64,000 bases of DNA from a virus (taxonomy: Duplodnaviria > Caudoviricetes), in IMG/VR virus record IMGVR_UViG_3300024235_000344, positions 4,982 to 68,981 of that record; one strand, 5' to 3'. Positions 1 through 47,551 of this stretch are shown piece after piece. Position 1 is the first letter of the stretch. Each line of letters begins with the position of its first letter. The notes beneath the pieces were generated by a model, which was not told where the DNA came from, did no database searches, and saw only the letters and a list, made by a program, of their open reading frames with translations. Made by a program: the position numbers and the translations under genes.

Positions 1-551
1 AATGACATTACATAATCGTTATCTTGATAGAAAAAATGAAATCTTTCATCAAGATAACCTATTTTTTCAAAAACTGATCGTCTGCAGCAAAATATACATC
101 CAAACATATGCAGTGATACTTCATAACCGTAATATAATTTATCATCAGTCGGTAGATACATTTTTTTATGTCTATGCCAGTTTCTATCAATAGGACTAAT
201 TGAATGTATATTTTTATTTATTTTAAATTGCTCAATTAAATTTTGTATACAATTATCATGTATTTGTAAATCATTATTTGGTCCAATTATAAATTCTGCT
301 TTACATTCTTTTAATGCAATATTGAAAAATTTATTATAATTAAATTTAATATCAGGTTTAATTATTTTAACTTTTGGCTGATTATAATCACCATCAAAAT
401 TGGTATTTGTTTCTACTACAAAAATATTGTTAATTATATCATCAGCTGTGTTAATATAAGAGTCTATACAACTTTTTGTTTTATTAAATGTTTCATCATC
501 TTTAACTAAAGATAATATAATTACATCTACTTTACCTGGAATATTTTTCAT
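1..551 (-). CDS. GT2-family glycosyltransferase (3'-truncated by window edge; not in ORF track)
   Basis: Manual translation from ATG at 551: MKNIPGKVDVIILSLVKDDETF...IIGPNNDL...SVFEKIGYLDERFHFFYQDNDYVMS, typical GT2 motifs; open to base 1. Confidence 0.75.
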   Translation of the reverse strand, partial: MKNIPGKVDVIILSLVKDDETFNKTKSCIDSYINTADDIINNIFVVETNTNFDGDYNQPKVKIIKPDIKFNYNKFFNIALKECKAEFIIGPNNDLQIHDNCIQNLIEQFKINKNIHSISPIDRNWHRHKKMYLPTDDKLYYGYEVSLHMFGCIFCCRRSVFEKIGYLDERFHFFYQDNDYVMS

Positions 552-1311
552 ATAATTCTTTCTCAACCTGTTTTATTACATCATACTGATGCAATACATA
601 TGGTATATTGTTATCAATTTTATACACCTCATCGACTTTTTCAACTATAGAGTCTCCTGAATGAGCTGCATTTAATATTTCACCGTTATTTAAAATCCTA
701 TAATTATATTCATCAAAATAAACAACTTTATTAAGCGACGCTTGATCGATATTTTGATAATTACCAACTCTAGATATGATACTACCCATATCTTTACACA
801 TTTCATCAAGTAAATAAATACAATTTTGTCTACTACCTAATACACTACCACCGTTTAATATATCTTTACTTTTTAATAGGTTAAATATATCTTGATTATA
901 ACATATATTCACCCAAGTACTATTTGTTTGACATGTACCAATTACTTTATTTTCACTAGTTACATAAGTTTTATCAGATTTAATTAACTTGAAAACATCT
1001 TTCTGAAAAAACAAATCTGTAAAATCACACATATACAAATTTTTGGATTTGGTATATTTTTTTGCATATAAATTAAAAAATATAACCTTTAATGTATATG
1101 GTGATAAATTTAAATTAACATTATGTTTTTCAGCAATCTCACAACCATCAACAATATTAACATTATTATCTTTTAAATATTTTTTTGTTTCAGATTCTAG
1201 GTTAACTCCAATAACAGTAAAAGTGCAATTTATTTTTTTTGCACTTTGAACTATAACTTTAATACCAGGTGTTAACTTATAATTTTGACCATATGTAACT
1301 ATTTCATTCAT
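532..1311 (-). CDS. Putative GT-A-fold glycosyltransferase
   Basis: DxxD-like 'CDFTDLFFQKD', 'ILNGGSVLG', 'IDQASLN', C-terminal 'VLHQYD'; lies between two GT2 genes. Confidence 0.55.
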   Translation of the reverse strand: MNEIVTYGQNYKLTPGIKVIVQSAKKINCTFTVIGVNLESETKKYLKDNNVNIVDGCEIAEKHNVNLNLSPYTLKVIFFNLYAKKYTKSKNLYMCDFTDLFFQKDVFKLIKSDKTYVTSENKVIGTCQTNSTWVNICYNQDIFNLLKSKDILNGGSVLGSRQNCIYLLDEMCKDMGSIISRVGNYQNIDQASLNKVVYFDEYNYRILNNGEILNAAHSGDSIVEKVDEVYKIDNNIPYVLHQYDVIKQVEKELYEKYSR

Positions 1312-2163: not shown

Positions 2164-2652
2164 ATGTCAAGCATTAGTATAAAACAGTTACCACGAATTG
2201 AAGAAGTAAATACTGGGGATTTATTTTTAATTCAAACTCCTAGTTCTTCTAATACTTTAGATTTTAAAGATCTTATTATAGGTTTAGAAAACACAACTTT
2301 TGCAAACACAATTTCTACTTTTAATACTAATATAGAAATTTTAAGTGCAGATGTTGGAAGTCTATCTGCAAAAGTAGATCTTAATACTACAAGTATTGCA
2401 ACAAATGCTGCTGATATTGCTGCGAATACAGTTCAAATTGATATTAACACTGCAAATATGGCTGCAAGTGCAGCTGTAATTGATAATAACACTGTAAATA
2501 TTGCAACAAATGCTGCTGATATAGTTACACTGCAAAGTGGAATAATCGACACTTCAAAAACACCAGATAGTGTAATAGGTACATCAACACACGGTATACC
2601 TATTACAATAGCTGGTACGAGTTATTTGATAATGTTATCAGCTATATCTTAA
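2164..2652 (+). CDS. Probable virion fibre/structural protein with trimeric coiled-coil-like repeats
   Basis: N-terminal 'SIKQLPRIEEVNTGDLFLI' typical of phage fibre/baseplate modules; repeated IATNAADI heptads; TAAATA upstream. Confidence 0.5.
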   Translation: MSSISIKQLPRIEEVNTGDLFLIQTPSSSNTLDFKDLIIGLENTTFANTISTFNTNIEILSADVGSLSAKVDLNTTSIATNAADIAANTVQIDINTANMAASAAVIDNNTVNIATNAADIVTLQSGIIDTSKTPDSVIGTSTHGIPITIAGTSYLIMLSAIS

Positions 2653-3410
2653 TCTAAATTATTTAACTTATTAAATTCTTTGATCTGTTCTAACTGCTCT
2701 TTTAAAGCTTTATCATTATCATTTGATTCAGTTTGTTGTTTGAGTAATTCTTCCATTAAATCTAAATTTTCTGGATTAAACAATTCTGATTGATCACCTT
2801 CGATCACATCTCCATCAACATCCAGATATAACTTTATCATTTCTGTTCGTTCATGTCGACTACCAAATACTTCAATTAAAGCAGGTGAGTCGTCTCTTGG
2901 AAAAAATGGATTTTCTTGAGGGTGTTGCTGATATTGAGCTTGTATAGCTTTAAAGATGTGGTCAATTTCTTTAATATAATTAGGATCAGTTTCTCTAACA
3001 CCATCATCTTCAATTTTAATATTATTAAATTTTGTAATTGGTAAAAAGAAGATTATATCTAAATGTTTCATGCTTTCAGATACTAAAGGTATACATTTAG
3101 TAATAAATTCTTCATCTATATCACCGACACCTTTTTCTAGACACCATAGAGAATATACGAGATTATCAATAGGACATCTATCCATAATTACATTATCATC
3201 AGGGCTAAAAGTCTGCATTTCATCAATCATATGATTGAGGATTTTCCATTGAGTATCTTTTGTAGCGTTTTTACTATGTGGTAGTTTCTCAGCTACTAAC
3301 TTAGCTCTATATGTGGAGCTTTCGGTTTTATAATTTGACCATTCCTGTAAGAAGTCATTAATTAGGGTAGTCTTACCTTGATTACCAGTTCCGCTTATTG
3401 CAATTCTCAT
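2649..3410 (-). CDS. P-loop nucleotide kinase-like protein (AAA_28/dNMP-kinase-like)
   Basis: N-terminal Walker A 'GTGNQGKTT' and 'IMDRCPIDNLVY' kinase motif. Confidence 0.7.
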   Translation of the reverse strand: MRIAISGTGNQGKTTLINDFLQEWSNYKTESSTYRAKLVAEKLPHSKNATKDTQWKILNHMIDEMQTFSPDDNVIMDRCPIDNLVYSLWCLEKGVGDIDEEFITKCIPLVSESMKHLDIIFFLPITKFNNIKIEDDGVRETDPNYIKEIDHIFKAIQAQYQQHPQENPFFPRDDSPALIEVFGSRHERTEMIKLYLDVDGDVIEGDQSELFNPENLDLMEELLKQQTESNDNDKALKEQLEQIKEFNKLNNLD

Positions 3411-3469: not shown

Positions 3470-4159
3470 ATGGTTATATTTAATGAAAAAAAACACAAGT
3501 ACGTTGATGATGAAACCGGTAAAGAGTTAATCTCAGCTACTACCTTACTCGGTAAATATAAACCTGCGTTCGATTCAATAGGCAATGCTACTCGGGTAGC
3601 AGCTAGAGAAGGTGTAACTGTTGACTTTATACTTGAGGAATGGAATACCGAGAAAAATAGAGCTTGCGATTACGGTACTCATATTCATAAAGTAATGGAA
3701 GATTTTTTAGGTGAGGATAAGCGTGAAGAAGAATATACTACATTATATGACTCATATAATAAGTGGGAGTATATATTTAAAAAGTTTCCGAAGTTAACTT
3801 GCGAAATGAGATTGCATAATATCGAGCTAAATATTGCTGGTACTGCAGATTTAATTTATGAGAATTCAGAATATTTTTATGTAGGTGATTTTAAGACTAA
3901 TAAGAACTTTAGATTCTTTAGTGAATATAACGAGTTTTTTAAAGCTCCTGTCGAGCATTTAGGTGTATGTGAGTTTAATACATACTGCTTACAGCTTTCA
4001 TTATACGCATACCTATATGAGTTAAGTAGTGGTAAGAAGTGTAGCGGGTTAGTTATCTTCTATAAAAATAAAGATGATACTTGGTACCCTATTCGCTTGA
4101 ATTATATGAAGACTGAAATTAAAGCTCTAATTGAAGATTATAATAAAACAAACGTTTAA
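3470..4159 (+). CDS. PD-(D/E)XK exonuclease (Cas4/lambda-exo-like, no evident Fe-S cluster)
   Basis: 'GTHIH', 'IAGTADLI', 'VGDFKT', 'YCLQLSLYAYL'. Confidence 0.8.
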   Translation: MVIFNEKKHKYVDDETGKELISATTLLGKYKPAFDSIGNATRVAAREGVTVDFILEEWNTEKNRACDYGTHIHKVMEDFLGEDKREEEYTTLYDSYNKWEYIFKKFPKLTCEMRLHNIELNIAGTADLIYENSEYFYVGDFKTNKNFRFFSEYNEFFKAPVEHLGVCEFNTYCLQLSLYAYLYELSSGKKCSGLVIFYKNKDDTWYPIRLNYMKTEIKALIEDYNKTNV

Positions 4160-4593
4160 ATCTCATCATCAAGCTCCTCTTCATCAGGAGTCTTTTTATG
4201 CGGCTTTAAGAAAGCTAAATCTTTCTTAGACCACTTACTTAGTGGTAATTTAAATAACTCTCTTTCTGAAACAAATCTAAAGCTTTTATGCTCCGGACTT
4301 AATTTAATATTACTAGTCTTTATATAACCTCTATATAAGACCCGAGAGCTATTAGATGATATTTGATTTATTTTTTTAATATCTATACCAGTTTCTTCAA
4401 AGAACTCTCTCTTTGCCCCATTAATTGGACTTTCACCTCGTTGTATATGACCACCAGGTAATTCAAATTGACCATTTTTCGTTTGAAGCATTAAAAATTT
4501 ATTATTAAAGGTAGAAATAATTTTTGATACCCTGTTTGTATCATTTTTTTTATTCTCAGATATAACTAAACCGGTTAAATTATTTAAAATCAC
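4156..4593 (-). CDS. NUDIX hydrolase
   Basis: Nudix box 'PGGHIQRGESPINGAKREFFEETGI'; GTG start 5 nt after TAAATA. Confidence 0.9.
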   Translation of the reverse strand: MILNNLTGLVISENKKNDTNRVSKIISTFNNKFLMLQTKNGQFELPGGHIQRGESPINGAKREFFEETGIDIKKINQISSNSSRVLYRGYIKTSNIKLSPEHKSFRFVSERELFKLPLSKWSKKDLAFLKPHKKTPDEEELDDEI

Positions 4594-4619
4594 ATAAATA
4601 TTTAATACAATAAAATGAT

Positions 4620-5102
4620 ATGTTTGGACTTATTACAATGTTACTTAGTACTCTTGGCGCAACCGGGATGGGGTCAATGCTTAAAATCGTCGCCGGTATT
4701 GTTGATCGCATCGGTGCTGCAAAAGAATCTAAAGAGAAGCGTGAGATACTCAGAGAAATGGACTTACGTAAAGCTGATGTTGAGTTTCAAAAAGCAGTTT
4801 TTGGTGAAGCTAATAACGATAACAGCGCTTTTACTCGCGGTACACGGCGTCTTATTGCTCTTATCGGGATGCTCAACTTTTTCGTCATCTCAGTTCTCTG
4901 CACCGTCTGGCCGAGTGTTGAACTCCTCACCTTCGTCCCAAGAGAAAATAAAGACTATATCTCCATCCTCTTCGGCTTCATCAAAATACCTTTGGGAACA
5001 GAAACCGTTGTGGCAATTACCACCGGTCACATTGCATTAATAGCTATTACAATGTTAGGCGCTATTATAGGATTCTACTTTACACCTGGTGGTAGAAAGT
5101 AA
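4620..5102 (+). CDS. Holin-like membrane protein
   Basis: N-terminal hydrophobic helix, charged coiled segment, two further hydrophobic segments, basic C-terminus. Confidence 0.5.
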   Translation: MFGLITMLLSTLGATGMGSMLKIVAGIVDRIGAAKESKEKREILREMDLRKADVEFQKAVFGEANNDNSAFTRGTRRLIALIGMLNFFVISVLCTVWPSVELLTFVPRENKDYISILFGFIKIPLGTETVVAITTGHIALIAITMLGAIIGFYFTPGGRK

Positions 5103-5670: not shown

Positions 5671-6036
5671 ATGAGTATTAAATCTTTCAAAAATCAAGGA
5701 TCATTTACAGGAGTTTTAGACGTTGACACTTTTGGTGTTTCAACTTTTAATAATGGTCTAGACGCTAATCAACAAAAATCAGCTCTATTATTCGACGGTG
5801 ATGCAGATAAAGAAATAGATGTTGAAGTACCTGCATCTGTTGTATTTGATGGAGCAACTTACACTTTTGATATCGATGAAGGTTATGACGGTGAAGTATT
5901 TGCAGTTATTAATAAAGATAGGTTATCAGTTCAATTTACATATGATACAGCTGTTACTATTCAAACACCGACAGCTGCAAGTTATGATAGTGTAAGTCCT
6001 GAAATTCGTAGATTAGCTTCTTTAGGTTACGTTTAA
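5671..6036 (+). CDS. Hypothetical late protein
   Basis: Clean ORF, TAAATA-N5-ATG, followed by terminator. Confidence 0.65.
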   Translation: MSIKSFKNQGSFTGVLDVDTFGVSTFNNGLDANQQKSALLFDGDADKEIDVEVPASVVFDGATYTFDIDEGYDGEVFAVINKDRLSVQFTYDTAVTIQTPTAASYDSVSPEIRRLASLGYV

Positions 6037-6055
6037 ACAACAATTTATAAACATT

Positions 6056-6085
6056 AAAAAGCCGTAATATATTACGGCTTTTTTT
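6056..6085. terminator. Bidirectional intrinsic terminator
   Basis: AAAAAGCCGTAAT-AT-ATTACGGCTTTTT between convergent genes. Confidence 0.85.
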
Positions 6086-6738
6086 TACTTTTTAGATTTC
6101 GTATCCTTAGTCTTCCAATAATATTCATCAGTATCGCCAAGACGGTATTGATAGCCATTCTCAACCTGATAGTATTCTGTACTTACTTTAAAGTCAGGCA
6201 TCTTCGGTTCAGGAGGTGTAAGAGAATTATCATAGACTCTCATCCTATTATTAGGGTACAATGCATACTGACCATTCTCGAGCTCAATACAATTAAATGA
6301 TTTATGTTCTTCCGGAACTTCTGCAGTTGAATAGTCAATATTATCAGGGTCTGAGTGATAATTATCGAGCGTAAACATATACGTACCTTTTAGTACTTCA
6401 TGACTTCGGGTAAAAACTTCAAAGTCCATAGATCCAATAAATTGCTTAAATATTGCCGTAACCCCGTAATCCATGCAATTCCAAAATTGTAAGTCTTGTA
6501 ATGGTAAGTCTGGGGATGGAGTTTCAGGTGATGATACAAACGCTGAAATAGGCAGCTTATCATACAGCGCTCCATACTCTGGTAAATATGTCTCAAAGTA
6601 GAAAGCTCTACCAGGTAATGATTTTGCACTTACCCAATGACCTTCGACAAACTCACCATGACCTTCTTTACCATCATGCAAGTACTCTTTACGTATGTAT
6701 ACTTTTGTACTTGGTATATTGCAAATTAATTCACTCAT
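6085..6738 (-). CDS. Hypothetical protein (resembles conserved unknown proteins of marine phages)
   Basis: 217-aa ORF directly downstream of queE; recognised from memory only. Confidence 0.6.
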   Translation of the reverse strand: MSELICNIPSTKVYIRKEYLHDGKEGHGEFVEGHWVSAKSLPGRAFYFETYLPEYGALYDKLPISAFVSSPETPSPDLPLQDLQFWNCMDYGVTAIFKQFIGSMDFEVFTRSHEVLKGTYMFTLDNYHSDPDNIDYSTAEVPEEHKSFNCIELENGQYALYPNNRMRVYDNSLTPPEPKMPDFKVSTEYYQVENGYQYRLGDTDEYYWKTKDTKSKK

Positions 6739-6741
6739 AAT

Positions 6742-7488
6742 CTAAACCTTAAGTGCCATATTCCAGATTACTAACTGTAATCTCGGACTAAACTTAAAGG
6801 TATGTTTCTTGCACAACTCAGCTACCATTTCAGATTTAGCAGTATGTTCATCACGGCTACCGCAACAAGGCATCAACCATACTCTCTCTCTACTAACTAA
6901 ACCGTTATCGATATATTTCTCGAATAGTTCCTTTTCATCATCTTCACTATTAACGACAAACTTAAAGCATGAACCGAGTTCGTTATGATATTTTAATACT
7001 TCAGGTTTATATCTAAGCTTTTCTGCATCACCGTTATTACTCATCTTAGGAGATACAGTAAATGTTGCGTTATATACTGAAGACCAGTCAGGAAGAGGCA
7101 TTAACGAACCGTTCGTTTCAAAATCAATACGAGGAGAAAATTTAAACCTATCAATAAATGATATCAACCAGCTCATTAACCTCTTTTGCTGGAGCAATGG
7201 TTCTCCACCGGTAATCTTTAGTATAGCACCGTCCTTAAGATTCTGTACAAAACCATTGTTCTCATAGAAATTATTAAGTTCATCGTATGTATAACGATTT
7301 TTAACTGACCAAGATACAAACGAATCACAACCATGAGGTGAATCCGCGGATGCAAACCCTTTACAAGTAAGATTACACATCGATAATCTCATAAATACAG
7401 AAGGTTCCCCTATATATTTACCTTCTCCTTCAATTGTATAAAAAACATGATCATCACTCAAGCTTAGCGTCTTATTTAAATCTACCAT
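6742..7488 (-). CDS. queE: 7-carboxy-7-deazaguanine synthase (radical SAM)
   Basis: 'FYTIEGEGKYIGEPSVFMRLSMCNLTC...CDS', 'ITGGEPLLQ', 'FETNGS', 'FSPRLQ'. Confidence 0.92.
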   Translation of the reverse strand: MVDLNKTLSLSDDHVFYTIEGEGKYIGEPSVFMRLSMCNLTCKGFASADSPHGCDSFVSWSVKNRYTYDELNNFYENNGFVQNLKDGAILKITGGEPLLQQKRLMSWLISFIDRFKFSPRIDFETNGSLMPLPDWSSVYNATFTVSPKMSNNGDAEKLRYKPEVLKYHNELGSCFKFVVNSEDDEKELFEKYIDNGLVSRERVWLMPCCGSRDEHTAKSEMVAELCKKHTFKFSPRLQLVIWNMALKV

Positions 7489-8599: not shown

Positions 8600-9295
8600 T
8601 TACTTATTACCCCATGAAGTACCTGCAAATGGGTCACCAAAACCTGTACTTCTCTTATTATATAGACCAGGAGCGTTAGGTTGTTCTTGTACAACTGGCT
8701 TAACTTCTTCTTTAACTTCAATAATAGGTGTCTTAACCTCTGGCACTTCAGTAATATTATTTCCAATCACTGCAGTGTTTGTAGTGATTTCTGATTCCGG
8801 TTCAGTTACATTTTCTTCCTCTGTATTACTATGAACCTGTAATGTGATCTCACCGAGACTTTCTTCATATATAGCACTATTACCTTCATGCTCCCATACT
8901 TCTACTTTAATAAGACGTACGCGACTATTAGTTGTCTCATCTACATATTTACTAACTGTATCATAAACCCATTCAGCTGTTCTTTCAATACCAACACCTT
9001 TCTTAGCAATACGAAGATCAATCATACCTTTTGTAGACATTAACTCAAACATACTCAATTCAGGATCATCAGCTGCTACTACAGTTGTATGGTCAAATTG
9101 CTTCTCTAATAATTTCTTAATCTCTCTACAACCACCAAAATCAAATACCCAATTTTTATCATCTAGTTCGTCAGCTGTAAACCATAACTTACATTGTAAA
9201 CGATAACCGTGAATTAACTTACAATGACTATCTGCTCTCCATTGACGAAAAGCGGTTGATCCCATAGGAATAATTTTAGTTGATACATATCTCAT
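8600..9295 (-). CDS. queD: 6-carboxytetrahydropterin synthase with ~85-aa C-terminal extension
   Basis: 'STAFRQWRADSHCKLIHGY', 'WVFDFG', 'FDHT', 'VEVWEHEGNSA'. Confidence 0.88.
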   Translation of the reverse strand: MRYVSTKIIPMGSTAFRQWRADSHCKLIHGYRLQCKLWFTADELDDKNWVFDFGGCREIKKLLEKQFDHTTVVAADDPELSMFELMSTKGMIDLRIAKKGVGIERTAEWVYDTVSKYVDETTNSRVRLIKVEVWEHEGNSAIYEESLGEITLQVHSNTEEENVTEPESEITTNTAVIGNNITEVPEVKTPIIEVKEEVKPVVQEQPNAPGLYNKRSTGFGDPFAGTSWGNK

Positions 9296-9301
9296 ATATA
9301 T

Positions 9302-9329
9302 ATTATGAAGTATATATTGTAGTATTCAA
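9302..9329 (-). promoter_or_regulatory. sigma70-like promoter TTGAAT-N16-CATAAT
   Basis: Direct reading; 6 nt before queD ATG. Confidence 0.55.
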
Positions 9330-10050: not shown

Positions 10051-11094
10051 ATGTCAGAAAAAAATAATAGTTACGAATGGTTAGGCGAAGATGATGAACT
10101 TACCGGAGAAAAAGACATCATCGCAAAAGAAATTATGGGGGATGAATTTAGTAAGAGTTATTTTCCACCTATTAGAGTGTATGATGATAATGTTAAAACA
10201 GATAAGCAATACATTTCATCTTTACCTGATCTTCAAAATGGTCCATCGAGTTTAATTCAAGGTGCATCTGTACCTATTCAGCAAGTTGGTATTCATAACT
10301 TTAAGTTACCTCTAACGTACAAGAAGAGAGATGGTAAGACTATTGAGTTGGAAACGAGCGTTACCGGCAGTGTTAGTCTAGAAGCTCATAAGAAAGGTAT
10401 TAATATGTCCCGTATTATGAGAAGTTTTTACGATCATAAAGATGAAACGTTTAGTATGGGTAAGATTAAAGATGTTCTAGAATCATATAAGAATAACTTA
10501 GAAGTATTTGACTCTCGTATCATGCTTAAGATTTCATATCCAATCAAGCAGAATAGTTTACGTAGTGGTTTAGAAGGATTTCAATATTATGATGTAGTAT
10601 TCGAAGGTGATCTAACTAAGGAAGGTGAATTTAAGAAGTATATTCACTTTGATTTTGTATATTCATCAGCATGTCCATGTAGTTTCGAATTGAGTGAGCA
10701 TGCTGAAAAATATCGTAACCGTGCTACTGTACCTCATAGTCAACGAAGTGTTGCGAGAGTTAGTGTAAAATTCGATGATAAGTTATGGGTTGAAGATCTT
10801 CAAGAATTATGTTTAGCTGCTCTTCAAACTGAAACGCAGGTAATGGTTAAACGTGAAGATGAGCAGGCATTTGCTGAAAAAAACGGTGCATATCTTAAGT
10901 TTGTTGAAGATGCAGTAAGGCTTTTATTTGAGAAGTTAAGTAATGAATCACGTATTAAAGACTTTAAGATTGTAGCTTCTCATAATGAGAGTCTTCATAG
11001 TCACAATGCTATATCAGTTATTGTAAAGGGTGTACCTGGTGGTTTTACTGCTGGCGTTGCAAGGGATATTTTTGAATCTACTGGTTTAAGATAA
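10051..11094 (+). CDS. folE2: GTP cyclohydrolase type IB
   Basis: 'IQQVGI', 'KGINMSR', 'SACPCS', 'HSQRS', 'FVEDAVR', 'ESLHSHNA'. Confidence 0.92.
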   Translation: MSEKNNSYEWLGEDDELTGEKDIIAKEIMGDEFSKSYFPPIRVYDDNVKTDKQYISSLPDLQNGPSSLIQGASVPIQQVGIHNFKLPLTYKKRDGKTIELETSVTGSVSLEAHKKGINMSRIMRSFYDHKDETFSMGKIKDVLESYKNNLEVFDSRIMLKISYPIKQNSLRSGLEGFQYYDVVFEGDLTKEGEFKKYIHFDFVYSSACPCSFELSEHAEKYRNRATVPHSQRSVARVSVKFDDKLWVEDLQELCLAALQTETQVMVKREDEQAFAEKNGAYLKFVEDAVRLLFEKLSNESRIKDFKIVASHNESLHSHNAISVIVKGVPGGFTAGVARDIFESTGLR

Positions 11095-39218: not shown

Positions 39219-40355
39219 ATGAGTAAAGAAACAGATGAAATTCTATCCGTAATTGATAAAACAAACCCATATGCATCATTCTTAAATGATAGTGCACTTA
39301 GTAATGTAGATGGCTGGTTAGATACCGGGTCGATGGTACTTAACGGTATTGTTTCTGGTTCGTTATTTGGAGGTATTCCAAAAAATAGAATGACTCTTTT
39401 AGCAGGGCCGAGTATGACAGGTAAGTCATTTATCTTACAGAAAATTTTAGCGAATGCTCAGAAGGAAGGTTTAATTCCTGTTATCTTTGATAGTGAGAAC
39501 GCTATTGATAAAGATGGTGCTGCAGCTCTAGGGTTAGATGTTAGTAAGGTAAAATATGTACCAGTATTTAGTATTGAAGAATGTCGTAATACAATTTATG
39601 ATTTCTTAATGAAGGTTAAAGAAAAGGGGCAAGAAGGTAAATTTATTATTGCGATTGACTCTTTAGGTAATATGGAGAGTCAGTTGCAGATCGGTCGTAT
39701 GACTAAGAATAATGTAAGTGCTGATATGGGTAGTAGAGCTAAAGCAATGAAAACTCTTCTTAGAACTTGTACTCAATTATCTGGTTTAACTAAGACAACT
39801 ATTCTAGCTACGAATCATATCTACGAAGATCCAGCTGCAATGTTTCCGACACTTGTAAAAGCAATGCCTGGTGGTACTGCAGCAGTCTATCTACCGTCTG
39901 TTACTATTCAATTAGCTCGTAAGCCAGTTAAGGAAGATAAGAATACAGATGGTAAGCTAGCAGCATTACAGAAGAATTATTCTGGTGTTATTCTAAGAGC
40001 ATTAACAGTTAAAAATCGTTTCATCAAACAATACTTACAAGGTGAGATGTATCTTTCATTCGAGAGAGGGTTAAACAAATATTACGGTCTACTAGACTTA
40101 GCAGTAGGTTTAGGAGCAGTGATTCAATCAGGAGCAACTTACCAGTTACCAGATGGTACTAAGCTCGGTTATTATTCAAAGTGGAAAGATGATAGAGAAC
40201 TTTGGGATAATACTATTGTACCGGTTATTGAAGAGAAGATTAAAAGCGAATGGAAGTATGGTAATAAAATTACAGATGATGATGTAGAAGAAATTCCAGA
40301 TGAAGTTATCGAACCTCAATCAGAAGAAGTATTAATTAATGAAGATGCAAAATAA
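39219..40355 (+). CDS. uvsX: RecA-like recombinase UvsX
   Basis: 'LDTGS..LN', 'GPSMTGKS', 'FDSENA', 'IDSLG', 'ATNHIY', 'GG'. Confidence 0.92.
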   Translation: MSKETDEILSVIDKTNPYASFLNDSALSNVDGWLDTGSMVLNGIVSGSLFGGIPKNRMTLLAGPSMTGKSFILQKILANAQKEGLIPVIFDSENAIDKDGAAALGLDVSKVKYVPVFSIEECRNTIYDFLMKVKEKGQEGKFIIAIDSLGNMESQLQIGRMTKNNVSADMGSRAKAMKTLLRTCTQLSGLTKTTILATNHIYEDPAAMFPTLVKAMPGGTAAVYLPSVTIQLARKPVKEDKNTDGKLAALQKNYSGVILRALTVKNRFIKQYLQGEMYLSFERGLNKYYGLLDLAVGLGAVIQSGATYQLPDGTKLGYYSKWKDDRELWDNTIVPVIEEKIKSEWKYGNKITDDDVEEIPDEVIEPQSEEVLINEDAK

Positions 40356-41088
40356 AAAAGTTATAGTTACATTATCTGGAGGCGCTGATTCAGCAGTACT
40401 GTTGTATAAAGCTGCAGAATTGTTTAGAGAAGTTCATACGGTTACATTTGATTACGGTCAACGACATGATAGGGAGTTAGTAGCTGCTAAGAAGCAATTA
40501 TTAAACGCTAAGCATGATTTTCCAAACGTTACATTTACTAATAAATTATTAGATGTAAAGTATATTAAGGATATTGCCCCTACTTCATCTCTTACAAATG
40601 ATGATATTGATACACCTAATGTAAAAGATATTATAGGTGAGGCTCAACCGAAGAGTTATGTACCATTCCGTAATTTAATGTTTATAAGTATACTAGCATC
40701 TTATGCAGAAGCAGTAAAAGCATCAGAGATCTGGTATGGAGCTGCTGAAGCAGATAGTTTAGCTGGTTACTGGGATTCGTCAAATGAGTTTATTGATACA
40801 TTTAATAATCTTGCAGCGTTAAATCGCGAGACTGTTATTAAGCTGGTTGCACCTTTAGTAAGGATGTCTAAGAAAGATATTGTATTAGACGGCGTTTCTC
40901 TAGGGGTCAACTTCGAAGATACATATACTTGTTACTCTGGCGAATACCCTTGTGATGCTGAGTCTGCTAGCAGCAGCTTACGTTTAAAAGGCTTTATAGA
41001 TGCCAAGTTAAGAGATCCTCTTTTATATACGCAACAAGATAAATTAGATGCTGTATATGATAAGAATGGATGTAAAGCTATTTGTTAA
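40345..41088 (+). CDS. queC: 7-cyano-7-deazaguanine synthase (variant C-terminal Zn motif)
   Basis: 'LSGGADS', 'FDYGQRH', 'YVPFRNLMF', 'GYWD', 'APL..MSK', 'YTCY'; start set to 40345. Confidence 0.9.
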   Translation: MQNKKVIVTLSGGADSAVLLYKAAELFREVHTVTFDYGQRHDRELVAAKKQLLNAKHDFPNVTFTNKLLDVKYIKDIAPTSSLTNDDIDTPNVKDIIGEAQPKSYVPFRNLMFISILASYAEAVKASEIWYGAAEADSLAGYWDSSNEFIDTFNNLAALNRETVIKLVAPLVRMSKKDIVLDGVSLGVNFEDTYTCYSGEYPCDAESASSSLRLKGFIDAKLRDPLLYTQQDKLDAVYDKNGCKAIC

Positions 41089-44041: not shown

Positions 44042-44069
44042 TTGATTATTGCTATATTTCTACTATAAT
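44042..44069 (+). promoter_or_regulatory. sigma70-like promoter TTGATT-N16-TATAAT
   Basis: 8 nt before the GATase ATG. Confidence 0.65.
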
Positions 44070-44077
44070 ATCATTAT

Positions 44078-44755
44078 ATGTGCGGTATTTATCTAAGTTC
44101 TAATCTCTCAACGTTTGAGGTACTCGAGGAAGCTAATAAAAAGAGGGGTAATTTCTCTACTGGTATATTTCATGCGTATAGATCATCTAATTATGATATT
44201 AAAAAGTATGAAGGTGGTATTAATTGGAATGATGTTAAATTACCACAAGGAGATGTAGGTGATTTTATTTATCTCGGGCATAACCAAGCACCGACAAGTT
44301 CTGCTAGAGAATGGAAAGAAAATACATCGCATCCATTTAGATCCGGAGACTGGATAGTAGCTCACAACGGAGTTCTAACTAATTATGAGGAGCTAATTGA
44401 TGAATACTTACCGGATCATGATAACCCTGTTGATAGTAGTGTAATACCGGCTTTATTAGATGAATTTGAATATAATCTCGGACCGTGTGAAGATTCAGAT
44501 ACTGAAATACAAAATATTTTATATACAATCGAAAAATTAAAAGGTACATTTGCTATATGGATTGTGAATATCAAAACAATGAACGTTTATATAGCAAGGC
44601 AAGGTAGTACGTTGTTTTATAAGGATGATAATGTATCATCTATTAAAGGTAACGGATATAAAGAAATAAAGGAAGGTATATTATACGGTTATACCGTTGA
44701 AGGTCTAGTAGAACTAGATACATTTATACACGATTCACCATTTTTAACATTATGA
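44078..44755 (+). CDS. Class II (Ntn) glutamine amidotransferase
   Basis: N-terminal 'MCGI', 'RGNFSTG', 'LGHNQAPT', 'HPF', 'AHNGV', 'VDS', 'GTFA'. Confidence 0.85.
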   Translation: MCGIYLSSNLSTFEVLEEANKKRGNFSTGIFHAYRSSNYDIKKYEGGINWNDVKLPQGDVGDFIYLGHNQAPTSSAREWKENTSHPFRSGDWIVAHNGVLTNYEELIDEYLPDHDNPVDSSVIPALLDEFEYNLGPCEDSDTEIQNILYTIEKLKGTFAIWIVNIKTMNVYIARQGSTLFYKDDNVSSIKGNGYKEIKEGILYGYTVEGLVELDTFIHDSPFLTL

Positions 44756-45225
44756 GTTTAAATTACATAACAAATACTAAAATAACTGAACTTGATAAAC
44801 TAAACTTTATTAAGTTTGTATATGATAATACAGATTCATTTATTATGAATACATTCGGACATGTATGGTCAGGTAGAAATTGGTGGAAAAAGTTTCCTAT
44901 TGAAGTTTGTATTGACGATGCCGGTACTATTATAGGTTTACATGCATATAGTGTAAATGATAAATTTCCTAAAACTTTAAAGACATACTTTATCGTAACT
45001 AGTAAAGAAGCACGAGGTAAAGGTGTAGCTAAGACGTTAGTACGAAATGCAATTTCTAAGCATAAAGATGATATTGAATTTTACTATGTTAATTCAGATA
45101 TTAGAAGTGATGGTTGTGCTTTCTATAAAAAGTGGTTAGGTAAAAAATTTGAAATTACTTCTAACGATTTTGAATCACAAGATATCACATTTAAGGAACC
45201 TATTTATAATATTATTAATGGATGA
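44752..45225 (+). CDS. GNAT acetyltransferase
   Basis: 'IVTSKEARGKGVAKTLV' acyl-CoA motif; 'AFYKK'. Confidence 0.75.
   Translation: MSLNYITNTKITELDKLNFIKFVYDNTDSFIMNTFGHVWSGRNWWKKFPIEVCIDDAGTIIGLHAYSVNDKFPKTLKTYFIVTSKEARGKGVAKTLVRNAISKHKDDIEFYYVNSDIRSDGCAFYKKWLGKKFEITSNDFESQDITFKEPIYNIING
45195..45210 (+). promoter_or_regulatory. GGAAC-N5-TATAAT promoter motif (inside GNAT 3' end)
   Basis: GGAAC CTATT TATAAT, 7 nt before ATG 45218. Confidence 0.55.
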
Positions 45226-45556
45226 TCTAAAAACAACTGGGAAACCTCGTCAGTTTGAAACTGGTGCACAACGTGATAACGGTGATGGTAAATTGCGTAT
45301 GAGCTTAGTGCCACATAAAGCTTTAGAGTCAGTTATGATGAGATACTTACAAGGTGCTGAAGCGTATGGTGAAAATAACTGGCGTAAAGGTATGAAGCAT
45401 TCTATATTATATGATAGTACAATGAGACATTTAATGCAAGACTTTAAAGGTGATGTAAGTGAAGATCATCTCGGAGCAGTATTATGGAATGTAATGGGAA
45501 TGATTTGGAATAGAGATAATAAACCAGAACTAGATGACCGTAAAGACTATGAATAA
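45218..45556 (+). CDS. dATP/dGTP diphosphohydrolase-like protein (DUF5664 family)
   Basis: 'FETGAQRD..DGKLRMSLVP', 'GAEAYGENNWRKG', 'STMRH', 'EDHLGAVLWN'. Confidence 0.85.
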   Translation: MDDLKTTGKPRQFETGAQRDNGDGKLRMSLVPHKALESVMMRYLQGAEAYGENNWRKGMKHSILYDSTMRHLMQDFKGDVSEDHLGAVLWNVMGMIWNRDNKPELDDRKDYE

Positions 45557-46226
45557 TATAAAAATATACACAGCAACTAAAGGTAAAAAAGAAGATACAT
45601 CCATTTTTAAATCCTTAAATGTAACTTTAGCGGATTACGGTCCTATAATGCCATTTGATGTACATTATGAAGAGAAAAATACTAAAAGCTTACAAAAACT
45701 TTATAACAGTTTCCTGGTCGATGCTAGACTCAACAATATTGATATTGCTGTTTTTGTGCATGACGATGTATATGTTAATACGAGGGATTTACGAACTCGT
45801 TTACTGGATAGTGCGAGACATTACACTGTGTTTGGGCTTGCTGGTGCTACTTCTTGTAAAATCGGTAGCCCGGCTTTATGGCATCTTATGTCGAAGAGGG
45901 AAGATCAGAGAGGTTGTGTAGCTCATGGTAATGAAAAGTCTTATATGTATACTTCTTTTGGCCCTGTACCGAGTAGATGCTTAGTGATAGACGGTGTATT
46001 CATTGGTATTAATATCAAAGAGCTACCTGAAAATGTGAAGTTTGATGAATCATACCCATCTAAGTTTCATTACTATGATTTAGACTTCTCACTTGAATGT
46101 AATAGGAACAGTGTTAAAATAGGTGTTGTGGATATACCTATCATCCATCAGAGTCCTGGTTTAACTAAACCAGATAAAGAGTTTTACAGTGGTCAAGAAT
46201 ATTTTATAAACAAATGGAAGAAATAG
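45549..46226 (+). CDS. GT2-like glycosyltransferase (Glyco_tranf_2_5/StrF-like)
   Basis: 'KSLQKLYN', 'VFVHDDV', 'GLAGA', 'IDGVFIG', 'FDE', 'FHYYDLDFSLE', 'IIHQSPG'. Confidence 0.8.
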   Translation: MNNIKIYTATKGKKEDTSIFKSLNVTLADYGPIMPFDVHYEEKNTKSLQKLYNSFLVDARLNNIDIAVFVHDDVYVNTRDLRTRLLDSARHYTVFGLAGATSCKIGSPALWHLMSKREDQRGCVAHGNEKSYMYTSFGPVPSRCLVIDGVFIGINIKELPENVKFDESYPSKFHYYDLDFSLECNRNSVKIGVVDIPIIHQSPGLTKPDKEFYSGQEYFINKWKK

Positions 46227-47551
46227 AAAGATTAAATTTAGATTATTATGAGCAAGTACTCATATATAAAAGTCTTACTGATGAAAGGTATCTAGCTCAA
46301 ATTATTGATCATGTACAACCTGAATATTTTAACGATAAAAATATTAAAAAAATATTTACGTTAATTAAAACCTTTTATGTAAAGAGACAAACATTACCAT
46401 CTATAACTGAACTTAAATCATACTTAATAAATGATGATTTAAAGCATAGTTTTGCTAACGTAGTTAAGAATTTTAAGGATATTGATAGAGATTTTAATAA
46501 TGATGAACTAGTACATAATACAGAAAGATTTTTAAAAGAAAGAGCAATTTATAATACTATGTTGGCTGTAGCAGAAGATATATCTTCTGGTAAAGTTGAT
46601 ACAAGTTATATTTTAGACTCATTTGAAAAGAGTTGTAATGTTGATCTAAAGAGTGAAATAGGTCTAGACTTGTATGAAGATATTGATATACTAGTTGATG
46701 AGATTAATACCGACCAACCTACAATACCATCAAAGTGGAAATGGTTAGATGATAAGTTGGATGGTGGTTTCTTAGAAAATGGTAGAGCGATATACGTTTT
46801 TGCTGGTGAAACGAATGTTGGTAAGTCTATTTTTCTAGGTAACATTGCATGCAATATTGCAAGTCAAGGTAAAACTGTTTTACTTATATCTTTAGAGATG
46901 TCAGAAATGATGTATGCTAAAAGATTATCTTCAAGTATAACAAATATACCGATGCGAGAAATGAGAAACGATTCTAATACGTTAAAGCATCGTATACAGC
47001 AGCATAGTGTTAATAATCCGAATGATAAAATTATTATTAAAGAGTACCCGCCTAGTACTATAACATCGCAGCAAATTCAAGGATTTGTACGTGAATTACA
47101 TAATAAAGGTATTAAGCCAGATACAATTGTATTAGATTATTTAAATCTGTTAAAGAGTGATATTGGTAATAATTCATATGAAAGAATAAAATATGTTACT
47201 GAAGAGATTAGAGCTTTAAGCTATGTGTTTAATTGTCCTATAATTTCAGCTACTCAATTAAATCGATCTGGTTATGATGAGGAGAATCCTGGATTAGATA
47301 CTATATCTGAATCGATTGGAATGGCAGCAACTGCTGACTGTATTATAAGCGTATTTCAAAACGATGAAGATAAAGAACTTGGTATTGTTCGTTTGGGTAT
47401 GATGAAGAATCGTTTTGGACCTAATTACGGGGTACAAGCCATGCGAATAGATTATAATACATTAACGTTAAGTGAAGATGAAACTATTCAGGATTGCGGT
47501 GATACAGATCTAGGTGGTATATCAAATGCTTTAGGAATGTTGAGTAATTAA
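46214..47551 (+). CDS. 41: Replicative DNA helicase gp41
   Basis: 'GETNVGKS', 'ISLEMSE', 'KEYP', 'LDYLNL', 'SATQLNRSG', 'ISES', 'MKNRFG'. Confidence 0.93.
   Translation: MEEIERLNLDYYEQVLIYKSLTDERYLAQIIDHVQPEYFNDKNIKKIFTLIKTFYVKRQTLPSITELKSYLINDDLKHSFANVVKNFKDIDRDFNNDELVHNTERFLKERAIYNTMLAVAEDISSGKVDTSYILDSFEKSCNVDLKSEIGLDLYEDIDILVDEINTDQPTIPSKWKWLDDKLDGGFLENGRAIYVFAGETNVGKSIFLGNIACNIASQGKTVLLISLEMSEMMYAKRLSSSITNIPMREMRNDSNTLKHRIQQHSVNNPNDKIIIKEYPPSTITSQQIQGFVRELHNKGIKPDTIVLDYLNLLKSDIGNNSYERIKYVTEEIRALSYVFNCPIISATQLNRSGYDEENPGLDTISESIGMAATADCIISVFQNDEDKELGIVRLGMMKNRFGPNYGVQAMRIDYNTLTLSEDETIQDCGDTDLGGISNALGMLSN

Follow-up and report, generated by a model that had tools for sequence, protein, structure and literature searches.

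The present analysis concerns four overlapping genes at positions 44078-46226 of a 64,000-nucleotide stretch of viral DNA (positions 4,982 to 68,981 of IMG/VR record IMGVR_UViG_3300024235_000344; hereafter the window), which encode in order a stand-alone glutamine amidotransferase (Gat), a GNAT acyltransferase, a DUF5664 protein, and a glycosyltransferase (GT). The favoured explanation, to which a probability of about 0.62 is given, is that the window belongs to a DpdA3-type guanine-replacement system, in which the GNAT, in place of the formyltransferase DpdN, attaches an acyl group to the aminomethyl nitrogen of (d)preQ1. The gene identities, the synteny, the mutually exclusive occupation of one gene slot, and the recurrence of the GNAT family are observed directly, and every chemical step is deduced from them. 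The source phage is an uncultured, marine, low-GC T4-like myovirus without a cultured close relative, and its record is a 68,981-bp fragment with an estimated completeness of 33%. Megablast of the region against phages gave no match, and the nearest cultured helicases, those of Rhizobium and Synechococcus T4-like phages, are about 31% identical to that of the window.

In Flavobacterium phage immuto the DNA contains 100% fdPreQ1, that is, 7-(formylamino)methyl-7-deazaguanine for every G (Cui et al. 2023; PMC10516641). DpdN is the proposed (d)preQ1 formylase of this phage, and its gene adjoins those of DpdA3, a distant TGT homologue, and QueF (PMC10516641). In the same study the preQ1-inserting DpdA2 of Vibrio phage VH7D was functional in E. 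coli. The more distant DpdA3 loci (≤66% identity) nearly all have the order DpdA3-DpdN-AAA_28-QueF, as in immuto, and the same order without GNAT is present in two complete related genomes, G011 and G012 (G numbers denote genomes and L numbers loci; the third complete genome is G013, and G001, of 185 kb, is 88% complete). In the clade of the window DpdN has been lost from the position beside DpdA3.

The common gene order of about 60 related IMG/VR loci is UvsX-QueC-(late genes)-Gat-[slot]-DUF5664-GT-helicase-DHH. Among the 37 distinct loci of the inner clade the slot after Gat holds either a GNAT (21 loci) or a DpdN-type formyltransferase (16 loci); no locus has both and none has neither. The slot formyltransferase is a protein of about 180 aa with an N-x-H...D signature and a PF00551 match, and its sequence shows 43% identity with immuto DpdN (E 1e-33). 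In the tree these formyltransferases form one clade (100/99) nested within the DpdA3-adjacent DpdNs of other marine phages (97/95), and immuto DpdN belongs to the same family. The complete genome G013 has GNAT in the slot together with DpdA3-AAA_28-QueF and no formyltransferase anywhere, and no DpdN formyltransferase homologue (PF00551) was found in G000, G001, G004, or G013. Because DpdN is absent and GNAT sits in exactly the DpdN slot, the GNAT probably acts on the same amine, and we infer from the gene arrangement that it is a non-orthologous replacement of DpdN.

The exchange between the two slot types can be followed in alignments and trees. The window and L003 are 81-94% identical up to 44756 (the Gat stop), have no alignment over 44757-45227, and align again from 45228 at 74%. 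In the helicase tree all formyl-slot loci group in a single clade. This clade and three further branches, all of the GNAT type, arise from one unresolved node, below which come outgroups whose slot is empty. The Gat tree mixes the two slot types, and its well-supported branches require three or more changes of type. According to these data there is repeated recombination between the slot types, with a breakpoint where Gat meets the slot, and both types persist.

The GNAT gene itself (44752-45225, + strand) matches Pfam Acetyltransf_1 (PF00583) with 33.8 bits against a cut-off of 20.7. Its AlphaFold2 (AF2) model (pLDDT 89.7) has the GNAT fold, with a Foldseek probability of 1.0 to many GNATs, and the acetyl-CoA (AcCoA) loop R88-x-x-G91-x-A93-K94 is conserved. 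The conserved loop and the confident model together indicate an active acyl-CoA enzyme. By sequence the protein had only marginal matches in PDB (best E 0.014) and no tblastn match in cultured phages, and NCBIfam gave no match for GNAT, DUF5664, or GT. When 1.84 billion proteins were searched with a profile of the GNAT, only 40 cluster representatives matched, and for 22 the E value was 1e-10 or lower; the family is thus small and distinct and is not a generic GNAT. The basic charge of the proteins was considered as a sign of DNA binding and rejected, since the isoelectric points are 8.7 for GNAT and 8.5 for GT but about 6.1 for DpdN and 5.3 for DpdA3.

Several members of this small family lie in other deazaguanine clusters. 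In L229 the order is DpdA3-GNAT-AAA_28-QueF, with a DpdA3 39% identical to that of G001 (E 6e-59), and the GNAT occupies the place where DpdN sits elsewhere. In L222, from a phage with a PolIII-alpha polymerase that is not T4-like, an AAA_28::GNAT fusion stands directly before QueF and is followed by QueD, a phosphoribosyltransferase (PRT), dUTPase, and FolE. In L225 the DpdA3 is 50% identical to that of G001 and the GNAT fusion comes one gene later, and in L226 a GNAT follows AAA_28. These contexts, together with the slot alternation, give the GNAT family several independent associations with the preQ1/DpdA3 module. The freshwater locus L226 also has its own arrangement: two GNATs (4510-4983 and 6001-6711) flank a HAD-family gene and AAA_28, 3' of a family-A polymerase and a QueE-like gene, which may be a more elaborate tailoring set.

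The first-pass annotation of the window, made from its letters and open reading frames (ORFs), had proposed the GNAT as an acetylator of a deazaguanine side chain with an undescribed product; by its alternation with DpdN and its recurrence in DpdA3/QueF clusters the enzyme has become a strong candidate for this role. That annotation knew of no acetylated DNA deazaguanine, and in agreement with it a literature search of incomplete coverage found no description of an acetylated deazaguanine or acetyl-preQ1 in DNA.

The assignment of the run to a 7-deazaguanine DNA-modification system, also proposed earlier, is supported by the que genes of the window and by DpdA3 and QueF in its GNAT-type relatives. 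The whole set for preQ0 synthesis is present in the window: a FolE2-type GTP cyclohydrolase I (10051-11094, + strand; Pfam GCHY-1, E 2.5e-72), QueD (8600-9295, - strand; Pfam PTPS, 41% identical to immuto QueD), a QueE-like radical-SAM protein (6742-7488, - strand), and the preQ0 synthase QueC (40339-41088, + strand; Pfam QueC, E 5e-51). The QueE-like protein has a weak Fer4_12 match and is 25% identical to immuto QueE (E 3e-7) and 75% identical to the G001 copy. QueC and Gat lie 3 kb apart and are separated by three inverted late genes.

DpdA3 and QueF are absent from the 69-kb, 33%-complete record, and both are present in the GNAT-type relatives G001, G004, and G013. With immuto DpdA3 as the query the matches have E 8e-77 in G001 and E 1.6e-75 in G004; the DpdA3 proteins of the relatives are 51-52% identical to that of immuto, and the G001 protein is 49% identical to that of Campylobacter phage CP220, the DNA of which is fully ADG-substituted (PMC10516641). 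In the three relatives DpdA3 is adjoined by an AAA_28 kinase-like gene and a bimodular QueF, with identities to immuto of 34% and 46%, respectively. This block lies 59-83 kb from Gat, and since such a distance would place it beyond the ends of the record, its absence from the window is uninformative. By the Pfam TGT profile PF01702 neither the record nor any of five relatives showed a DpdA; the idea of a DpdA-less clade was nevertheless rejected, since DpdA3 has no Pfam match at all, so that PF01702 is blind to it, and was found with the immuto protein. A weak DpdA3 tblastn match in the window at 1851-1937 (E 0.12) proved to be a GT2 glycosyltransferase instead. No DUF3109/DpdM was found in the window or in four relatives. 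The placement of the DpdA3-kinase-QueF block differs among the relatives. In G004 the block and Gat share a strand and are 59 kb apart, and in G001 and G013 they are on opposite strands and separated by 82-83 kb; either the genomes are rearranged or their assemblies differ.

The favoured pathway would run as follows. FolE2, QueD, QueE, and QueC would make preQ0 from GTP, with the stand-alone Gat supplying QueC with glutamine-derived ammonia in an asparagine-synthetase-like division of labour. QueF would reduce preQ0 to preQ1 and DpdA3 would insert the base into DNA, both of these genes lying off the fragment. In the sister phages DpdN would formylate the 7-aminomethyl group to give fdPreQ1, and in the phage of the window the GNAT would move an acyl group, most likely acetyl from acetyl-CoA, onto the same amine. 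The predicted product is 7-(acetylamino)methyl-7-deazaguanine; its nucleoside would be heavier than fdPreQ1 (324.1308) by CH2 and is expected at an [M+H]+ of about 338.146. DUF5664 would hydrolyse dGTP and other deoxynucleoside triphosphates (dNTPs) to the monophosphates (dNMPs), supporting the replacement.

In this pathway the part of Gat differs from the one first supposed. The gene (44078-44755, + strand) encodes a class-II (Ntn) glutamine amidotransferase above the Pfam cut-off for GATase_6/7, with an N-terminal MCGI (Met-Cys), an AHNGVLTN oxyanion motif, and VDSSVI; the catalytic Cys is conserved in G011, G012, and G013. QueC belongs to the PP-loop enzymes, and the synthetase domain of asparagine synthetase is among its relatives. 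PHROG 10428 is a family of Gat-QueC fusions, and the Gat and the QueC of the window each match one half of it. Stand-alone Gat homologues directly follow QueC in two cultured phages that also have QueF, namely, Vibrio phage 2.275.O (QueF-transporter-QueC-Gat-FolE) and Pseudomonas phage pf16 (QueF-QueC-Gat-NTP pyrophosphohydrolase-DNA polymerase), and for this reason the likeliest role of Gat is to serve QueC as a glutaminase and not to provide a side-chain amine. The proposal that Gat provides the acceptor amine is accordingly revised: QueF, present in the GNAT-type relatives, most likely yields the preQ1 aminomethyl group, and the Gat homologues follow QueC.

The DUF5664 gene (45218-45556, + strand) matches PF18909 (dGTP_diPhyd_N) with E 1.3e-19 and 70.5 bits against a cut-off of 27, over profile positions 3-99 of 99, and none of the other three genes is as well conserved, its identity being 78-95% across the inner clade. 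The stand-alone DUF5664 of Arthrobacter phage Wayne converts dATP, dUTP, and dGTP to dNMP (PMC12884076), and dNTP pyrophosphohydrolase activity has been shown only for this protein and those of Acinetobacter phage (PMC12884076). Many phages with canonical DNA also have a member of the family (416 phage records), and finding one is by itself hardly informative. The earlier statement that DUF5664-type or other dNTP pyrophosphohydrolases recur beside such systems agrees with the loci compared: a DUF5664 homologue lies inside the DpdA3-DpdN-...-kinase-QueF cluster of L161/L162, PRA-PH family proteins stand beside the que clusters of immuto (gp208) and pf16 (gp76), and an HD-domain/P-loop protein stands by the DpdA3-type cluster of CP220. 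Cellulophaga phage phiST likewise has a MazG/dUTPase-like gene by its DpdA3-type cluster, according to the published description. No PRA-PH was found in the five genomes searched. By its distribution DUF5664 is regarded as a recurrent accessory.

The glycosyltransferase (45534-46226, + strand; PF13712 Glyco_tranf_2_5, 42 bits against a cut-off of 27) has an invariant H76-D77-D78 in 38 sequences, and its AF2 model (pLDDT 93.1) has the GT-A fold with the UDP-binding majastridin 2qgi as the best match (TM 0.71, E 8.6e-12), followed by ppGalNAc and collagen galactosyl transferases. It had no tblastn match in cultured phages and no sequence match in PDB, and in ESM Atlas only viral PF13712 clusters were re-found. 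Its position between uvsX and the helicase is the only suggestive link to DNA. In the GNAT-type locus L095 the gene is reduced to an 88-aa remnant (8748-9304) between DUF5664 and the helicase, with Gat, GNAT, and DUF5664 intact, and GT is absent from the independent deazaguanine contexts L222, L229, L226, pf16, Vibrio phage 2.275.O, immuto, and CP220. GT is probably a conserved neighbour and not a part of the base pathway, and with its restriction to this phage group the earlier suggestion of base glycosylation is left without support. Of the four genes, whose co-occurrence with que/dpdA had been put forward as a check, GNAT, Gat, and the pyrophosphohydrolases recur in independent contexts, but GT is confined to this group. 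Two more GT2-family glycosyltransferases are encoded at the left end of the window (3-566 and 1308-2174, both - strand), and the phage invests heavily in glycosylation of something.

Several facts weigh against the acylation of preQ1 by the GNAT. The phage is uncultured, so that its chemistry is a prediction only, and the activity of DpdN is likewise predicted. DpdA3 and QueF are not on the record and their presence is extrapolated from relatives with a helicase ≤71% identical; L004, of the same sub-lineage as the window, has a helicase 99% identical. Within the marine clade slot type and helicase lineage go together, and the 37 loci, split 21/16, accordingly stand for few evolutionary events rather than for as many independent ones. 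The fold search with the GNAT gives only generic small-molecule and protein acetyltransferases, which leaves the acceptor and the acyl donor undefined, and the enzyme could use another acyl-CoA. Since the fused Gat-QueC of phage 9g yields dG+ (PMC6884629), an archaeosine-type (G+) product or side product may by analogy be formed. The complete genome G012 has no DUF5664, PRA-PH, or other listed pyrophosphohydrolase, and a pyrophosphohydrolase is therefore dispensable.

Some of these facts can also be explained if the GNAT is an unrelated "moron" that has settled at a recombination hot spot and uses a protein, a polyamine, an antibiotic-like molecule, or an amino sugar as its acetyl acceptor, the DNA carrying plain dPreQ1. 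The generic character of the fold matches (RimI, phosphinothricin acetyltransferase, and SpeG types) suits this explanation, as do the recombination breakpoints at the slot borders. An amino sugar substrate is suggested by two sugar-nucleotide clusters, including an aminotransferase, which the first-pass annotation read in the window, by the fact that the same two superfamilies also contain the N-formyl and N-acetyl transferases of sugars, and by a weak NCBIfam match of the slot formyltransferase to dTDP-4-amino-4,6-dideoxyglucose formyltransferase. Nevertheless, a moron is unlikely when the slot is never empty or double in the 37 inner-clade loci and its alternative occupant is a DpdN orthologue; moreover, the remote GNATs lie between DpdA3 and AAA_28-QueF, or are fused to AAA_28 by QueF, in unrelated phages without nearby sugar clusters. 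Less still can be said for ordinary auxiliary metabolism, where the que genes and Gat would serve host tRNA queuosine supply or protein conjugation. The lack of DpdA3 and QueF on the record and of any TGT found by PF01702 in the relatives would fit it, but that profile does not detect DpdA3, which the immuto query finds in relatives (E 8e-77), and in immuto, phiST, and CP220 the DpdA3 family goes with the replacement of every G (PMC10516641); such a role is hardly credible.

The scheme as first proposed united all four genes in one tailoring operon, with amination by Gat, acetylation by GNAT and/or glycosylation by GT, and clearance of dGTP/dATP by DUF5664. The overlap of the four genes speaks for such a unit, and so does the adjacency or overlap of Gat and GT in distant relatives that are without both middle genes (L096, G012). 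Single steps also have some basis: a fused Gat-QueC makes dG+ in phage 9g, and the fold of the GT is that of a UDP-binding GT-A protein, with the DxD motif intact. In T4 the beta-glucosyltransferase gene likewise lies between uvsX and gene 41. As a whole the scheme appears very improbable, because QueF in all sufficiently complete relatives supplies the amine without Gat, immuto makes fdPreQ1 without a Gat or GT homologue, and an N-acylated amine offers no obvious glycosyl acceptor. The truncation of GT in L095 and its absence from every independent deazaguanine context argue in the same direction, and a promoter-like element splits Gat-GNAT from DUF5664-GT.

Apart from the identity of the product there is the question of when it is made. 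We think it possible, although improbable, that DpdA3-type systems act on nucleotides before replication and not on finished DNA. In this tentative sequence DUF5664, PRA-PH, MazG, or HD enzymes would convert dGTP to dGMP, and DpdA3 would swap guanine for preQ1 on the nucleotide. With the same small chance the AAA_28 kinase (NadR-kinase-like) would re-phosphorylate the product, the GNAT would acylate the nucleoside or nucleotide, and the polymerase would incorporate it. The idea rests on the always-adjacent kinase, the kinase-GNAT fusion, and the precedent of Z-genome phages, in which dATP is converted to dAMP and further to dZMP via DutZ or DUF5664 plus DmtZ (PMC12884076). A purely post-replicative DpdA3 model leaves the conserved AAA_28 kinase unexplained, and a pre-replication route, if true, would explain 100% replacement; it runs against the literature, according to which every deazaguanine DNA modification is post-replicative.

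The kinase-like genes deserve description in their own right. AAA_28 stands beside DpdA3 in three distant lineages, at L078:2233-2787 (G001), L070:14516-15040 (immuto), and L220:5819-6361 (CP220), and resembles NadR ribosylnicotinamide kinase or thymidylate kinase. A second kinase-like gene of 253 aa with AAA_28 and dNK matches is located in the window at 2649-3410 (- strand) and is 25-31% identical to the DpdA3-adjacent kinase; near it are a NUDIX hydrolase (4156-4593, - strand) and a PD-(D/E)XK nuclease (3470-4159). In the Bacillus siphoviruses BSTP12 and BSTP10 DpdA3-like matches (25-28%) are found under NadR-like or polynucleotide kinase annotations, which may be another DpdA3-kinase association or fusion.

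The organization of the run was described correctly at the outset as four overlapping genes directly before gp41: the ORFs are all on the + strand, each scores above the Pfam cut-off of its own family, and the last of them overlaps the DnaB-like replicative helicase, the gp41 equivalent (46214-47551, + strand; DnaB_C, E 2e-27). The overlaps are 4 nt for Gat/GNAT, 8 nt for GNAT/DUF5664, 23 nt for DUF5664/GT, and 13 nt for GT/helicase. The start of DUF5664 is likely the ATG at 45218 rather than the TTG at 45149 given in the program ORF list, because the G011 and G013 homologues begin at the equivalent position.

Promoter-like elements precede both Gat and DUF5664, which is why two transcription units, Gat-GNAT and DUF5664-GT-helicase, are probably present. 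Before Gat a sigma-70-like sequence TTGATT-16-TATAAT (44042-44069, + strand; 10/12 matches in a consensus scan) was read, which is a lead only, as sigma-70-like matches are not enriched in the AT-rich region around it. Before DUF5664 a GGAAC-N5-TATAAT promoter-like motif, GGAACCTATTTATAAT, is located at 45195-45210 (+ strand), 7 nt from the ATG. The GGAAC-N5-TAYAAT pattern occurs in 8 copies in the window (7495, 11163, 29002, 36130, 45195, 50804, 54985, and 59624), mostly just 5' of start codons, against 0.12 expected from shuffles, and is a candidate phage-specific promoter class. The copy before DUF5664 is kept in 18/20 GNAT-type loci; however, it coincides with the codons of the conserved GNAT C-terminal peptide KEPIYNII, so this conservation cannot be credited to promoter function alone. 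The internal promoter proposed earlier thus stands as an enriched motif, with its conservation confounded by coding. In formyl-type relatives this place before DUF5664 is taken by a TTGATT/TATAAT-like element instead of the GGAAC motif.

The borders of the run also carry insertions of 0.7-1.9 kb in relatives (L010:9541-11406; L013:9470-10559; L012:10122-10849; G013:61966-63351), which vary in position between the DUF5664/GT, GT/helicase, and GNAT/DUF5664 borders, and a SegE-like GIY-YIG gene is found beside Gat in L092. The insertions are probably homing endonucleases and may drive local recombination.

Eight 7-deazaguanine derivatives are known in phage DNA, and of these methyl- and formyl-preQ1 are tailored at the aminomethyl nitrogen. 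Acetyl (or other acyl) preQ1, if true, would be the ninth and would come from an unrelated enzyme superfamily. Two chemotypes would then co-circulate and recombine in the same marine phage population, as expected for the product of an arms race with modification-dependent host nucleases, and the kinase and pyrophosphohydrolase neighbours raise the question of when DpdA3 systems act.

Compared with known systems, the GT resembles majastridin (2qgi/2nxv) and other GT-A UDP-sugar transferases in fold (TM 0.71) and DxD motif, with a sequence identity to majastridin of 15-16%, and differs from the T4 DNA glucosyltransferases, which have the GT-B fold. The DUF5664 protein shares PF18909 and a setting in a phage with predicted purine replacement with the enzymes of the Z-phages, which carry 2-aminoadenine (DUF5664-DUF550 of Acinetobacter phage SH-Ab 15497 and DUF5664 of Arthrobacter phage Wayne; PMC12884076), but the base replaced here would be G and not A. 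As in the Gat-QueC fusion of Enterobacteria phage 9g and Crenarchaeota, which leads to archaeosine (dG+), a class-II Gat is combined with QueC; in the window the two are separate genes, and because they coexist with QueF in the relatives, a preQ1-type end product is more probable than G+. DpdM (DUF3109), which gives mdPreQ1 in Cellulophaga phage phiSM and Vibrio phages, likewise tailors the 7-aminomethyl nitrogen of dPreQ1, by a different fold and chemistry. The closest likeness is to immuto, which has the same pathway genes and the DpdA3-(DpdN)-AAA_28-QueF order common to the relatives, and whose DpdN has an orthologue in the sister phages. Unlike immuto, the window type is without DpdN and has GNAT in the slot, uses FolE2 instead of FolE, and keeps its candidate tailoring gene in the replication module with Gat and DUF5664 and not beside DpdA3; immuto is without this Gat and GT. 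On these grounds the comparison predicts an acetyl-preQ1 product, undescribed in the incompletely covered literature, made in an otherwise known DpdA3-type system by a GNAT that stands for DpdN.

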